Of a stretch of DNA of 9,917 bases, positions 818-9,917 are shown piece after piece (positions within the stretch are counted from its first letter, which is position 1; each line of letters starts with the position of its first letter). Origin of the DNA: a virus; UHGV virus genome UHGV-0207821. One strand, 5' to 3'. The translations under genes and the position numbers were made by a program. The notes beneath the pieces are model-generated. The model worked only from the letters and a program-made list of their open reading frames with translations. It was not told the origin of the DNA and did no database searches.

Positions 818-1201
818 TCAACCAATCAGCTTATAGCGACCATCCCGTGCATTGCGACGTACACGCTCAATCTTGAGGCATAGCGCCGCATCTGGCTTTT
901 TGGGGACAGGTACGCGGCAATATTCAGAAGCTCGAGGAATATTGTTTATCCAGTCGATCACTTCACTTAAATACCAGGCTTTACGCCCTTCCGTAACCTG
1001 TACGCGTTCGGGGAACTCTCCACGAGCCTCAAGGTTTAGCAATGTGCGACGGCTAAGGGTAGTAAGTTCCATCACCTGATTCATATCAACAAGGCGTTCA
1101 CTTAAACGCATTTTGTCAGCAATAGCCTTTAATTCCTCTACTGCTGGATCCGGATACATCATTTCGGCAATTGGCTTAAGGTCATTGTAATGATTCTGCA
1201 T
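818..1201 (-). CDS. AlpA/MerR-like helix-turn-helix DNA-binding protein, function unknown
   Basis: Central motif MELTTLSRRTLLNLEARGEFPERVQVTEGRKAWYLSEVIDWINN has the AlpA/excisionase-type HTH pattern. ATG at 1201 is preceded by AGGGGGA. Lies between the gpD-like gene and cos. Confidence 0.7.
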   Translation of the reverse strand: MQNHYNDLKPIAEMMYPDPAVEELKAIADKMRLSERLVDMNQVMELTTLSRRTLLNLEARGEFPERVQVTEGRKAWYLSEVIDWINNIPRASEYCRVPVPKKPDAALCLKIERVRRNARDGRYKLIG

Positions 1202-5870: not shown

Positions 5871-6103
5871 AACCCCCCCCCATTTTCACAATCAGCAATC
5901 AGGATGGCTTTGGCCTCATTCAGCGCCATATCCGCACTAAGTTGCATAACCGCCAGCGAATGAGGAACGAAAGCCCCGGCATATTCTGTTTCACTGGTAG
6001 CGTGCTTATGCGCCCTGTCCGCGATAACAGAAATATCAATCGGCGCATCAATCAGTGTTTTGATTGCTTCGGCGGCTGCGTCCGGACGGGTGTTATTGCA
6101 CAT
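5843..6103 (-). CDS. Hypothetical protein, upstream half of a possible poly-G frameshift pair
   Basis: 86-aa ORF; the G9 tract encodes the GGG in ...ADCENGGGLCVMIVLIP near its C-terminus. A 10-G tract would fuse it in frame to the 5637-5870 ORF. Confidence 0.45.
   Translation of the reverse strand: MCNNTRPDAAAEAIKTLIDAPIDISVIADRAHKHATSETEYAGAFVPHSLAVMQLSADMALNEAKAILIADCENGGGLCVMIVLIP
5873..5881 (-). repeat. Homopolymeric G9 tract (C9 on plus strand) at the junction of two ORFs
   Basis: Nine consecutive C on the plus strand at 5873-5881, inside one ORF and directly upstream of the next ORF's ATG. Confidence 0.9.
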
Positions 6104-6461
6104 GGTGCACCTCCTGGCGAATACGGGCGGCGAATACCATCACGCAGCCAGCCGGGGATTGCTGACGTGCTTCCTGTTCGCTGGTGGCCTCGATGTGAAT
6201 CACGCGCGGTTGTGCCGTGCTCAGGGCGATAAAACGCCAGATAAAATTGTTCTCGCATTTCTGAATAAACAGCGTGTTTTCTTCGCGCCCTTTCCATGTT
6301 GCCGAGATATAGCCCATGTCATTGAGCATCTCGCAGGCATCCACCAGCGTATCAGCGGCTACGTGTACAGTGTTTTTACCGTCAGCCATGCAATCACGGT
6401 GCACCGCCAGGAAGGTGTATATAAATTTAGGGTGAGTTTGGGTATGCTGTGTTCCAGCCAT
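6093..6461 (-). CDS. Hypothetical protein, first gene of the leftward operon
   Basis: 122 aa from ATG 6461 (MAGTQHTQTHPKF...), SD GAGGT about 8 nt upstream. Normal amino-acid composition, unlike the junk-like translation further upstream in the same frame. Confidence 0.5.
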   Translation of the reverse strand: MAGTQHTQTHPKFIYTFLAVHRDCMADGKNTVHVAADTLVDACEMLNDMGYISATWKGREENTLFIQKCENNFIWRFIALSTAQPRVIHIEATSEQEARQQSPAGCVMVFAARIRQEVHHVQ

Positions 6462-6669
6462 AATCGTTACCTCATTTAACGGTTTGGTTAGAAGCCCGGT
6501 TAGTGTTCGCGCACTGCCGGGTTTCGTCGTTTTTATGAATCGCTCATTGTGAGATACATAGCGACCCCCATGTGAGATACACATTATATTGTGGTGATAT
6601 ACATTGCAAGTGTTTTTATATCTCACTTTTGTGTATAGTGATATACACATAACAAATTGGTGATTAACT
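6462..6669. promoter_or_regulatory. Divergent regulatory region with operator-like repeats
   Basis: Four same-orientation copies of GTGA(G/T)ATACA at 6549-6558, 6572-6581, 6593-6602, 6639-6648; inverted partial TATCTCAC at 6619-6626; palindrome GTGTATA-GTGA-TATACAC at 6631-6650 just upstream of the RHH gene. Lies between divergent gene starts at 6461 and 6670. Confidence 0.55.
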
Positions 6670-6972
6670 ATGTCTGTATACAAAAATGCAAAATCGCAAA
6701 TGACAACGATCAGGGTTCCCCACGATGTTATGGAGGGCATGGAATCCGTAAAACTGGACGGCGAAAGCAACGCCGGATTCATAGTAACCGCCATGCGCGG
6801 TGAGATCGCTCGCCGGCAGGCAGAAGGAAGAGGAGAAAATCCCTTGGTTTCTTCGCTCGATGCACTGGCGCAGGTGGAAAAAATCGGTGTCAAAGCAGCC
6901 GAGGAGATCGGGCAACTCGTCACCGTCGCGCGTGAAGAACTCCAGCGGCGCAAGGCCAAAGAACCAGAGTAA
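6670..6972 (+). CDS. Ribbon-helix-helix (CopG/Arc-like) transcriptional regulator, candidate element repressor
   Basis: N-terminal MTTIRVPHDVMEGMESVKLDGESNAGFIVTAMRGEIARRQ fits the RHH strand-helix-G-x-S-x-N-helix pattern. SD GGTGA 6 nt before ATG 6670. Charged, helical composition. Confidence 0.6.
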   Translation: MSVYKNAKSQMTTIRVPHDVMEGMESVKLDGESNAGFIVTAMRGEIARRQAEGRGENPLVSSLDALAQVEKIGVKAAEEIGQLVTVAREELQRRKAKEPE

Positions 6973-7029
6973 TCACCATCAGCGCCGTGGTGTAAGGTAT
7001 TACGGCGCATTGCTATGCAGGACAACACA

Positions 7030-7203
7030 ATGACCGATAAAGAATTGACCAAAACATTATCACCGGCACGGAAAAGACGGCGCAGAAAGATAGAGCATGA
7101 ATCAGAAAGATTCGCGCCATGTGCTTTTGCTCTTGAGAAATTCCTTAAAGAGCACAGGAAAAAGCTCTCGTTGCAAACCTTGGAACGAACCAAATCTGAC
7201 TGA
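7030..7203 (+). CDS. Small basic protein, hypothetical
   Basis: 57 aa from ATG 7030 (SD AGGA 7 nt upstream); very basic (RKRRRRK). Co-oriented with the RHH gene and followed by a terminator. ATG 7015 is an alternative start. Confidence 0.4.
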   Translation: MTDKELTKTLSPARKRRRRKIEHESERFAPCAFALEKFLKEHRKKLSLQTLERTKSD

Positions 7204-7676
7204 TCACATTGCCCACCAGCCGCAAATGTGGCATTGTTGGTGATGCTCATGCGTTGGGGATAACGTGTAGCTTGTGTCGAGGGGCCACCGTAGCGGGTGG
7301 CCTTTGTTTTGCCTGTTATCCGGCAATTGTGGCGCTTCGCCACACGGTTGATATAATCCCACTGCTCAGATTCATTTTTTGCGCAGTAGGTTAATTGTTC
7401 ACAAAGGCGCTCCGGCAACGGGGCGCTTTTTGTTTTTATTAGTTTGTAGAAACCTGACTCAGAGATAATGCTCATATTCTGATTGCCGTCAGGGGGGTAA
7501 GTTAAATTTACTCCCTTTTCATCAAGCATCTGCAACGCTCTGGCGTTAATAATATTGGTTTCACTCCCGCCAATAAGGCCGGAAATAACCGGAATAATTT
7601 CAGCGAAATTTTGCAGATTCTGGTTTTCAGGCCGAACGAAGCCCCGCCCCTGTACAGGCGTATATCCAGTATTCAT
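7204..7676 (-). CDS. Possible Bro-N/antirepressor-like protein; 3' end undefined because the frame has no stop until 6093
   Basis: N-terminal ~125 aa from ATG 7676 look protein-like; NMSIISESGFYKLIKTKSAP resembles the Bro-N/antirepressor signature (weak, from memory). Beyond about 7300 the translation turns Cys/Ser-rich and runs antisense through the RHH operon and the operator region. The 7204 end is arbitrary. Confidence 0.3.
7283..7310 (+). terminator. Rho-independent terminator of the plus-strand regulator operon
   Basis: GGCCACC (7283-7289), loop GTAGCG, GGTGGCC (7296-7302), then TTTGTTTT (7303-7310). Confidence 0.55.
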
Positions 7677-7728
7677 GGTTAAATCTCTGTATTAGTGGAT
7701 GGGTGGCGGCTGTGTGCCGCCAGCCTGA

Positions 7729-7917
7729 TTAGTGAACTGCCTCGCGGCTGTCCTTCCATGCCAGAACTTCGGATAAAGACCAGCCAACGGAACGACCACC
7801 GAGTTTACGCCGTGATGGGAATTGTCCAGTCTTCTCCAGGCGATACCGACATGAGCGGCTCAGGCCTGTAAGTTGCTGACATTCTTTTTCACGTATAAAG
7901 CGATCTGTGCTTAACAC
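7729..7917 (-). CDS. alpA: AlpA-family (excisionase/Vis-like) transcriptional regulator
   Basis: LSTDRFIREKECQQLTGLSRSCRYRLEKTGQFPSRRKLGGRSVGWSLSEVLAWKD is a classic AlpA HTH. Start proposed at GTG 7917, preceded by AAAGGGGGA. The ORF-track ATG at 8025 would add a low-complexity T/N/P-rich extension. Confidence 0.7.
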   Translation of the reverse strand: MLSTDRFIREKECQQLTGLSRSCRYRLEKTGQFPSRRKLGGRSVGWSLSEVLAWKDSREAVH

Positions 7918-8285
7918 AATTCCCCCTTTGTTGTTTCTTAAAGAGTCATTGGGTGGATTATTGGGTTGGGTTGTGTCGGATTGTGTCAGGGTGTTTATGG
8001 AATGGCAAACACTGGTGGCGGTCATTTTACAGAAGTGGGGGTAGTGAGAATAAAAATCCTTTTAATTCATTATGATGTAAAGGCATAAAATTCTGTTTTT
8101 ACGCCTTTTTTACATGTTTTTAAGAGTGATTCGCCAATGTACAAAAAGCCAGTAAAACGACTGAAAATCAACTTTTTAGGGTGTCAGTCAGATGATAATC
8201 AAGTTTGTTCCAGATTGTTCGCCGTTGTTCGTCGTGGTGTCTCGTTGTTTCACGTTGTGTCCGTTCTAAAAAATCGCAAAAAAAA

Positions 8286-9533
8286 TTATATTTCTCTGGC
8301 TATTGGCAGTGTGGTTACGTTTTCGTGAGTGCCTGCCAGTATCTCTAACCGCTCTGTCCACATGTCCAGCGCATTACGTTTCGCATCGAGATAACGGGAG
8401 TGGTTATAGACTCGCTGCATCCCTGGCATCTGGTGAGCGGTGAGTTGTTCGACAATATGCGGATCCACGCCTAAATCGTTCAGCATCGTGGTAAACGTGC
8501 GCCGTATATCGTGTAGTGACCAGTGCGGATGGTTTAATTTTTTGTGCATGAATCTGCCGTATTGCGACACACTGGCTTCCTGTTTCAGTTCCCCGAGTAA
8601 TAGCCCTGTGTGTCTGTTCTGCTCCACCAGCTGCGTGACGAACGGTAAAATGCTTTCCGGTATTGGCCTGAATATGGCGACCTTCGTTTTGCTGTGCTCT
8701 TTCGGTACTGTCCAGAGCATTTCCTTAAAATCCCACTCCCTGATCTCCGATAATCTCAGTTCTCCGGTTCGGCAGCCGAACACAATCAGGAGGCGGATTA
8801 GTGCGCTGTAGTAGGGCGGGAATATTTTTTTATCCAGCGCCTGTAATAATTCGCCAAGTTCTTTGTTGCTCAGCACGCGTTCGCTTATGCCTGGTTTTTT
8901 GCCAACGTCCACCACGTTAAGATCATCCAGAACGTTACTGACTGCGTAGCGACGTTTACGGCAGAACTTAAGCGCCTGTTTACACGCCTGCATCATGTGA
9001 CCAGACGTTACAGGGGATTTTTTGCGTATCCGGTCAAAACAGGCCAGCCAGTGACGTAACTCGCATTTATCCAGTGGCATATTGCCAATATGCTGTATGA
9101 CGTGATTATTCAGGCGGCTTTTCAGGCATACGTAATCGACACGGTTTTCCTTTACGTGCATTTCCAGCCAGTAGCTGATCGCATCACCCACCGTTACCGG
9201 CTTTAGTGCTTCCTGTATGGAGTAATTAAGCTCATGGCGTGGATTTTTTCCTTCTGCCAGCCATGCGCGACACTGTGCCGCTTTTTCCCTGGCTGCTTTC
9301 AGGCTCAGATCAGGATAATTTCCCAGCTTCAGGCGTTCCGGTGATACCTGGCGTCCAGCTCCTGCTCTGTAGGTGAAATACCAGGTTAACAAGCCGCTGG
9401 TGGAATGCCTGACGCTCAGGTTTCCACCGTCATTAAGAAATGTGGTTTTTGGGGCTGGTGTGCCGTTGATTTTTCTTAGCTGTGTATCGCTCAGTTTGTT
9501 AAGTGCTCTGCTCATAATTTTGAATCCGGTCAT
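8286..9533 (-). CDS. int: Tyrosine site-specific integrase, P4-family type
   Basis: N-terminal LSDTQLRKI...DGGNLSVRHS...LLTWYFTYR typical of P4-family integrases; C-terminal catalytic region with HDIRRTF and VYNHSRY (tyrosine nucleophile). ATG at 9533; the ORF track starts at GTG 9536, and ATG 9515 is also possible. Confidence 0.9.
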   Translation of the reverse strand: MTGFKIMSRALNKLSDTQLRKINGTPAPKTTFLNDGGNLSVRHSTSGLLTWYFTYRAGAGRQVSPERLKLGNYPDLSLKAAREKAAQCRAWLAEGKNPRHELNYSIQEALKPVTVGDAISYWLEMHVKENRVDYVCLKSRLNNHVIQHIGNMPLDKCELRHWLACFDRIRKKSPVTSGHMMQACKQALKFCRKRRYAVSNVLDDLNVVDVGKKPGISERVLSNKELGELLQALDKKIFPPYYSALIRLLIVFGCRTGELRLSEIREWDFKEMLWTVPKEHSKTKVAIFRPIPESILPFVTQLVEQNRHTGLLLGELKQEASVSQYGRFMHKKLNHPHWSLHDIRRTFTTMLNDLGVDPHIVEQLTAHQMPGMQRVYNHSRYLDAKRNALDMWTERLEILAGTHENVTTLPIAREI

Positions 9534-9779: not shown

Positions 9780-9873
9780 ACCGGCGCAGAGGAGACAATG
9801 CCGGATTTAAGACGCGGATGCACTGCTGTGTGTACTGTAGAGTCTGGCGGATGTCGACAGACTCTATTTTTTT
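9780..9873 (+). ncRNA. mcaS: About 94-nt sRNA with four GGA motifs, McaS(IsrA)-like
   Basis: Promoter-to-terminator unit with no ORF. 5' stem-loop CCGGC...GCCGG; GGA motifs in single-stranded or loop contexts (GAGGAGA, CCGGATT, GCGGATG twice); terminal hairpin plus U7. Sequence matches my recollection of E. coli McaS, a CsrA-binding sRNA; not verifiable here. Confidence 0.55.
9838..9873 (+). terminator. Rho-independent terminator of the sRNA
   Basis: TAGAGTCTG (9838-9846) pairs with CAGACTCTA (9858-9866); 11-nt loop containing GGA; followed by TTTTTTT (9867-9873). Confidence 0.7.
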
Positions 9874-9917
9874 ATGCAGTTTTAACTTTGCAGATAGCCG
9901 CATTCTCGCCGGAATTG

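Follow-up and report, generated by a model that had tools for sequence, protein, structure and literature searches.

Why does a reading frame of 527 codons stay free of stop codons while it runs antisense through a regulatory operon and its operators? The question is raised by UHGV virus genome UHGV-0207821, a stretch of 9,917 nt which was analyzed as a whole and is referred to here as the window. By its gene content, the window is an Escherichia coli Gram-negative phage-inducible chromosomal island (PICI), a P4-related satellite. The frame in question is a minus-strand open reading frame (ORF) at 6093-7676, which starts at ATG 7676, comprises 527 codons plus a stop and contains no internal stop codon, as the initial annotation had described. 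Comparison with relatives supports the view that this frame is kept open by selection across many sequence variants, and the ORF appears to be selected for openness, not for sequence. We consider it probable (about 0.6) that it is the eta-type gene of the PICI, whose translation would allow induced transcription to pass through this regulatory stretch.

The frame is stop-free from 7691, and its first ATG, at 7676, lies 50 nt past the stop codon of alpA (7729-8025, minus strand; a vis homologue, PF05930, 9e-18), the gene immediately upstream. It bridges a set of plus-strand features, and the antisense overlaps listed in the initial annotation were all found. A YlcI/YnfO-family ribbon-helix-helix (RHH) gene of 100 aa (6670-6972, plus strand) lies wholly antisense inside the long ORF; it matches the family hidden Markov model above cutoff (NF041551, 5e-20) and has the RHH fold. 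The second gene of the plus operon, a 62-aa basic ORF (7015-7203, plus strand; phrog_21027, 2e-14), is also antisense inside the long ORF, as are two intrinsic terminators of this operon (7280-7305 and 7403-7430, plus strand). Operator-type repeats flank predicted divergent promoters; they comprise TGTGAGATACA at 6548 and at 6571 and a third, related copy at 6638-6664, and extend over 6548-6664 in total. Finally, the long frame merges, as had been noted, in frame with the gene that starts at ATG 6461 and codes for an Icd-like domain (NF033153). According to the coordinates, the third codon positions of the plus-strand genes and of the long ORF face each other, i.e., the two strands are in a wobble-to-wobble register.

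Openness of the frame in the window and in relatives

One explanation is that the frame is open by chance and by virtue of this register, with no selection acting on the minus strand. The register is favorable: a stop can arise on the antisense strand only where a CAN codon follows NNT or a TAN codon follows NNY, and Tyr, His and Gln are scarce in the RHH protein. When synonymous codons were resampled with the protein given, the probability that no antisense stop occurs ranged from 0.11 to 0.32 among the RHH genes and was 0.80 in the 62-aa gene. Thus, the proposal of the initial annotation that the wobble register of the plus-strand genes preserves the frame holds in part, as the register is real and lowers the expected number of stops, but it is insufficient in view of the resampling values and of the open non-coding stretches. 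In the same antisense register, 13 other genes of the element contain ~3 stops per 100 codons (for example, 15 in the 417 codons of int and 11 in the 472 codons of the helicase gene), and therefore the register alone does not hold the frame open.

In mononucleotide shuffles, the probability of an open frame was 0.0045 for 7431-7676, 0.039 for 7204-7430 and 0.0069 for 6462-6669, and the other five frames contain 1-8 stops each in these three stretches. For the ~450 codons of the long frame that have no plus-strand gene opposite, the joint chance of openness is ~1e-6. Stop avoidance was also visible at the synonymous sites of the RHH genes. The base before their 106 CAN codons was A in 31 cases, C in 33, G in 41 and T in only 1; it varied among A, C and G at individual sites, and the sole T belonged to a locus with a broken long frame. 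The proportion of T before CAN codons in the control genes was 18.7%. The corresponding binomial P for the avoidance of T, 7e-9, ignores shared ancestry and was not used as a probability. An Erwinia homologue located outside the alpA context was tried as a clean negative control and was dropped because its gene body is itself without antisense stops, the frame being closed only at the stop-codon junction of the gene and in the flanks; this locus is weak evidence.

We then turn to the relatives of the element. E. coli relatives of 96% identity have a 396-codon frame through the same region, whose stop lies in the intergenic region and which is not in frame with icd. The first 400 residues of the long ORF matched 1,810 database proteins, many of which are 400-540 aa long and named 'Icd-like protein'; identity went down to 53-65% at 99% coverage, and nearly all of these proteins end in the Icd-like motif. 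This set is biased towards long ORFs, and therefore loci were fetched by the 68-aa Icd-like protein only, which yielded 80 loci from IMG/VR and a further 9 from other species or genera, 89 in all. Across the interval from alpA to icd, the Icd frame had 0-5 stops and each other frame had 11-50. When sequences with at least 95% identity over 90% or more of the length were grouped, 43 usable clusters resulted, in which the locus includes alpA and is not truncated at its end. In 25 of the 43, the frame is open from the alpA stop or from a point before it and spans the whole alpA-icd interval (226-532 codons), whereas in 15 it opens further down, with other genes between, and has at least 200 codons; only 3 clusters have a short frame. 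The commonest short type, locus L001, represents a frameshift, in which the frame shifted by one base has only 2 stops between alpA and icd.

The most variable part of the interval was informative as well. The 240 nt upstream of the icd leader, which consist of an AT-rich promoter/operator region and the 5' end of the opposite gene, fall into 26 groups that share <80% identity and are unalignable. The Icd frame is stop-free in 24 of these 26 groups, whereas the other two frames contain 148 and 151 stops in total (~5.7 per variant in each frame) and are open in none or one group. These promoter-region variants, the 40 of 43 clusters with frames of at least 200 codons (against ~3 stops per 100 codons in the controls) and the openness of the non-overlapped codons in the window all argue against an unselected frame, which we regard as very improbable.

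The arrangement extends beyond E. coli. Frames of 248-361 codons occur in Cedecea, Rahnella, Enterobacter, Rosenbergiella, Superficieibacter, Intestinirhabdus and Tenebrionibacter, and in Serratia, Edwardsiella and Photorhabdus frames of 285-391 codons run antisense through the YlcI homologues of these organisms, ending in the Icd-like domain in Serratia and Edwardsiella. The same loci bear on a further explanation offered initially, namely that a Bro-N-type gene which normally ends near 7200-7300 has lost its stop in this element. In the distant relatives from Edwardsiella and Photorhabdus, alpA is indeed followed by complete Bro-N or AntA genes that stop short of the RHH gene. However, a separate open frame starts downstream of these alpA-side genes and crosses the RHH gene, and no relative of the window's N-terminal type stops near 7200-7300 (the best 120 of the 1,810 proteins read on). 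The homologue comparison that had been suggested as a check thus revealed no conserved stop in this region, and stop loss in the window is extremely unlikely.

It should be noted that the long ORF and the YlcI gene are never annotated together by the pipelines, which call one or the other. In the E. coli variant that is most common (locus L099, 2501-3778) only a 425-aa ORF is annotated, and the antisense RHH and 62-aa genes are missed. Conversely, in loci L001 and L002 the Prokaryotic Genome Annotation Pipeline (PGAP) annotates the YlcI gene and the 68-aa Icd-like gene and leaves out the 396-codon frame.

Constraint on the two strands

Several measures indicate that the RHH and 62-aa genes on the plus strand are real genes. 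YlcI-like homologues with a constant length of 100-104 aa are found in Yersinia, Citrobacter, Enterobacter, Klebsiella, Photorhabdus, Xenorhabdus, Serratia, Erwinia, Edwardsiella and Cronobacter, and the RHH gene with a small second ORF in the same register is present in almost every long-ORF variant. Among 16 distinct RHH gene sequences, the ratio of nonsynonymous to synonymous substitution rates (dN/dS) was lowest of all six frames in the RHH frame (0.165), followed by the long-ORF frame (0.297), which shares its wobble positions, and exceeded 1 in the remaining four. A value of 0.30 for the long frame in the overlap is expected from these shared positions and would also be seen if the minus frame were not selected. 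For the 62-aa ORF, the analogous ratio for polymorphisms (pN/pS) was 0.39 vs 0.64 for the long-ORF frame. The element's own genes served as the training set for codon-usage log-odds, which, in bits per codon, were +0.45 for the RHH gene and +0.30 for the 62-aa gene (sense), and -0.38 and -0.20 for the long ORF opposite these genes (antisense-like); outside the overlap, the long ORF scored +0.24 to +0.37 (sense-like). Codon scoring of each strand, which had been proposed as a check, therefore favors the plus-strand genes over the long ORF where they overlap.

The RHH gene is a candidate immunity repressor. Its putative DNA-reading beta-strand occurs as many alleles, including KSQMTTIRVP, KSQLTTVRVP, KSQSVTARIA, KSQTVAARVP, KSQQLNARFP, KSQALKARVP and others. 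Alleles of the TGnnnnnCA operator motif include TGAGATACA, TGAAACACA, TGTAAGACA, TGTTCAACA, TGAATACCA, TGGGCCACA and others. The TGnnnnnCA repeats of the adjacent intergenic region co-vary with the beta-strand sequence over >10 allele classes, which suggests matched repressor-operator pairs, i.e., immunity types.

What, then, does the long ORF encode? The initial annotation considered that it might genuinely overlap the repressor operon in antisense. This is supported to the extent that an open frame is maintained by selection, but no separate constraint on the encoded protein is seen in the overlapped part. In a true dual-coding pair both frames are under purifying protein selection, and here only stop avoidance was observed on the minus strand. 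It is possible that the long ORF nevertheless makes a functional multi-domain protein of the 'Bro network' and that the locus is such a dual-coding pair. PGAP and other callers annotate Icd-like proteins of 400-540 aa in thousands of contigs, a study of these satellites (Mageeney et al. 2023, PMC10111431) regards genes of this kind as coding for Bro-network proteins that swap domains, indels between alleles are in frame, and the non-overlapped parts have sense-like codon usage.

The Bro-N-derived residues of the N-terminal part also speak for a protein of this kind. According to the initial annotation, the first ~125 residues look like a real Bro-N/antirepressor-like domain. This was overstated with respect to a whole domain, and a Bro-N-derived fragment of ~50 residues (aa ~44-93) is what remains, part of it within the N-terminal 82 codons (7431-7676, minus strand). 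The fragment is similar to Bro-N domains in their middle and C-terminal part (PHROG Ant families, 1e-4), and its phmmer matches are Bro-N proteins, whereas Pfam Bro-N (PF02498) gave no match to the long ORF at E<0.1 and its gathering score was not reached. The N-terminal 82 codons have a codon log-odds of +0.37, i.e., sense-like; pN/pS for aa 1-82 is based on only 2 comparators and is uninformative.

Further downstream, at aa 83-157, pN/pS is ~0.8 in all six frames (14 homologues). The middle part (aa 158-405) is Cys/Ser-rich as described initially (14.5% Ser, 4.4% Cys), with Leu also abundant, and its codon usage opposite the plus-strand genes is antisense-like. It gave no match in Pfam, NCBIfam and PHROG searches of the whole ORF, and Pfam detected no above-threshold domain in the long ORF outside the Icd-like end. 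The sequences that look like conserved protein motifs coincide with nucleic acid elements: KSAPLPER is the plus-strand terminator at 7403-7430, KATRYGGP is the terminator at 7280-7305, whose stem exists in two or three alternative compensating versions among relatives, ITNNATFAAGGQC is an invariant 38-nt DNA element, and TTKPGSxxTLTGLL is a leader hairpin with compensatory changes. The middle of the long ORF also mirrors the RHH allele opposite, including a 44-aa deletion opposite short RHH alleles. In view of these observations, a multi-domain protein that is functional throughout is unlikely.

The invariant element TTGCCCACCAGCCGCAAATGTGGCATTGTTGGTGATGC (7209-7246, plus strand) follows directly after the plus operon and is the same in variants with unrelated flanks. 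Rfam gave no match for it. Between this element and the terminator at 7280-7305 there are ~45 variable nt. The whole stretch, 7209-7305, which is fully antisense to the long ORF, looks like a plus-strand 3' untranslated region or a small-RNA element.

Likeness to P4 eta and a possible mechanism

A frame of comparable position is known from satellite P4 (NC_001609). There, a stop-free frame of 214 codons (8168-8812) starts inside orf88/vis, an AlpA-family gene, runs to epsilon and has NF033153 at its C-terminus (1.4e-20). This frame is eta (orf199), in which kil is nested. The long ORF of the window is a positional and C-terminal homologue of eta. It begins just after an AlpA-family gene on the same strand, covers the immunity region and an internal early promoter (here a candidate only), lies upstream of the replication operon and shares its C-terminal Icd-like domain, NF033153 in both elements, with a short in-frame nested gene. 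Homology was detected at this domain; in tblastn of the long ORF against the phage collection only four weak partial matches were found, P4 not being among them, and the RHH protein gave no match in the same type of search.

The nested Icd-like gene (6093-6461, minus strand), the counterpart of P4 kil, starts at ATG 6461 preceded by GAGG and matches NF033153 at 1.2e-22 (5.7e-21 for the full ORF of the window). Its pN/pS is 0.14. The annotated Icd-like protein of relatives has 68 aa. In the window, the segment at 6243-6679 (437 nt) is swapped compared with the closest annotated E. coli relatives (267 nt, L001 1943-2209), and the window's Icd-like gene therefore has an extra N-terminal stretch of ~70 aa, whose start (MAGTQHTQTHPKFIYTFLAVHR) resembles the start of P4 kil (E 1e-4).

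A structured leader with two hairpins (6465-6530, minus strand) lies upstream of the Shine-Dalgarno (SD) sequence and start of the Icd-like gene and is contained in the long ORF (aa ~383-404). Three base pairs of these hairpins have changed on both sides among variants with pairing kept. On the plus strand, a sub-threshold Rfam match to SymR, a cis-antisense antitoxin RNA, was found at 6456-6528 (35.7 bits vs a gathering score of 61); it corresponds to the first leader hairpin with a T-rich tail in the plus-strand reading. A candidate internal leftward promoter, TTGCAA-15 nt-TATAAT (6583-6609, minus strand), was read from the sequence; its 15-nt spacer accounts for its absence from the output of the consensus scan. 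It is directly followed by two operator copies and might be an analogue of P4 PLE, which is located in eta.

The two systems also differ. Immunity in P4 is provided by CI RNA (seqA/seqC) on the same strand inside eta, whereas the window has an opposite-strand RHH and 62-aa operon with terminators and type-specific operators. No Rfam match to C4 or IsrK was detected at E<=1 in the window or at E<=10 in 6300-7750, and there was none to CI either. In addition, the ORF of the window is 2.5 times longer (527 vs 199-214 codons).

Nonsense codons in eta reportedly cause premature Rho-dependent termination at timm in P4, and their suppression is said to reverse the effect. In the description of P4 given in PMC10111431, eta contains a constitutive promoter, whose transcripts undergo termination by way of the CI RNA. 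Full-length Eta is made solely on transcripts of the late promoter upstream, with its translation coupled to the alpA homologue, and this translation prevents termination. In Gram-negative PICIs, AlpA activates downstream genes from its own promoter (PMC6092414).

A similar scheme can be proposed for the window. In the quiescent state, the RHH protein would bind the TGnnnnnCA repeats and hold down the internal leftward promoter at 6609-6583. Upon induction of alpA by a helper phage, transcription from the alpA promoter would travel ~1.6 kb leftward and cross the plus-strand terminators, the antisense of the repressor operon and the operators. Ribosomes on the open frame would follow RNA polymerase and might shield the pyrimidine-rich transcript (C>G and U>A in minus-strand RNA over 6650-7100) from Rho-dependent or immunity-specific termination. 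The same leftward transcription would probably interfere with repressor expression. The short Icd-like protein, whose gene heads the replication operon, would be made from ATG 6461 on transcripts of the internal promoter. If ribosomes act as such a shield, selection would be on the absence of stops and not on the amino acid sequence of the middle part.

The frame might also be kept open for another translation-linked reason, such as melting of the leader by ribosomes entering the Icd-like gene or head-on interference with the repressor operon. The co-varying hairpins are situated inside the frame just upstream of the Icd-like SD sequence, and the repressor operon is convergent with the long ORF, which speaks for these possibilities. 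However, neither needs 0.5-1.5 kb of fully open frame, since a short upstream ORF would open the leader, and the homologous P4 case is reported to act through termination (PMC10111431). We therefore view these possibilities as quite unlikely.

Several observations weigh against an eta-type gene selected for openness only. The resampling values for the RHH genes and the open gene body of the Erwinia homologue, both given above, are among them. A minority of loci have broken or frameshifted frames, including the L001 type (11 of 94 analyzed loci), and therefore an element either can do without strict continuity or has overlapping frames in its place. Most of the sample consists of E. coli relatives, and the clusters lack phylogenetic independence. 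ATG 7676 is preceded by a weak SD-like GAGA, and it is separated from the alpA stop by a gap of 50 nt, unlike in P4, where the start overlaps the alpA homologue. The sense-like codons of the N-terminal part and its Bro-N remnant suggest that the N-terminal protein may partly matter. In the gap between the alpA stop and ATG 7676, a GC-rich hairpin without a U-run (GGCGGCACACAGCCGCC) is present at 7695-7728 (minus strand).

With the eta-type reading, a more general proposal can be made, which we put forward tentatively and consider somewhat doubtful. Many Gram-negative PICIs might hide an allele-specific RHH repressor operon antisense inside an eta-type 'ribosome shield' ORF, and the two would form a bistable switch. 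Transcription driven by AlpA would traverse the repressor operon head-on and evade Rho; the repressor would be silenced and replication started. Such a switch would be built from a ~530-nt sense/antisense coding overlap that is kept across enterobacterial genera.

The new feature compared with known systems is an opposite-strand, protein-coding repressor operon inside an eta-type ORF, with stop avoidance at the operon's synonymous sites. In the immI region of phages P1 and P7 (c4 antisense RNA - icd - ant), an Icd-type gene heads the operon and its translation controls downstream transcription. The window differs in that no C4 RNA was detected and in that the Icd-like part forms the C-terminal end of a frame of far greater length. 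The YlcI/YnfO protein differs from Arc/CopG/MetJ-class RHH repressors by a long C-terminal helix; to our knowledge, no repressor of this class is embedded antisense in a maintained ORF, and none was found in the literature searched, which also contained nothing that joins PICIs with ribbon-helix-helix regulators or places YlcI/YnfO in such a context. Antisense pairs of E. coli, such as asa, ano and related genes of enterohemorrhagic E. coli, resemble the locus in having a long antisense overlap with translation proposed for both strands. In those pairs, however, a short, young ORF is embedded in a conserved gene, whereas here the embedded genes are conserved, the enclosing ORF seems to be only stop-constrained and the arrangement is kept across genera; the E. 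coli antisense-overlap paper that was checked does not mention the window's locus. Close counterparts are also the 'Bro zone' genes (PMC10111431), which lie between the int-alpA zone and the replication zone, show mosaic segment-swapping with Bro-N or ASH-related pieces and are likened in that study to P4 eta. The same study describes the satellites as unidirectional and does not mention an opposite-strand gene, YlcI/YnfO or an antisense overlap, whereas in our analysis the mosaic segments track alternative RHH/operator alleles on the other strand.

If the long ORF is indeed an eta-type gene, the P4 principle that translation of an otherwise meaningless frame serves as anti-termination would extend to a large group of satellites, with the added demand that the anti-termination frame must cross protein-coding genes of the other strand. 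The locus would then be a clean natural case of selection for 'no stop codons', and not for protein sequence, that has left its mark at synonymous sites of a gene on the other strand. Gram-negative PICIs, for which the founding paper called the existence of a master repressor unclear (PMC6092414), would gain a candidate for this role, together with matched operators and numerous immunity types. Finally, the either/or annotation noted above would make these elements look unidirectional and hide their regulator.

Neighboring genes and minor elements

The order of the element is int, alpA, the regulatory zone, replication genes and then capsid and Nu1-type late genes. The minus-strand genes include Phage_integrase, Phage_AlpA, a RepA-type helicase (AAA_25), SSB, Phage_cap_E, HDPD and Phage_Nu1. 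The succession of int, alpA, replication and late genes, all on the minus strand, is that of Gram-negative PICIs, and it fits the four zones (integration, 'Bro', replication and late) described for them (PMC10111431). Relatives with 92-99% identity were present in 1,758 of 5,426 complete E. coli genomes.

A second AlpA-family gene (818-1201, minus strand; PF05930, 1.4e-8) is located in the late zone, between the head-decoration and Nu1-like genes. At the other end of the window, a McaS/IsrA small RNA was detected in full length at 9780-9875 (plus strand; 118 bits, E 3e-22), ~240 nt past the integrase gene, and therefore the satellite sits beside mcaS.

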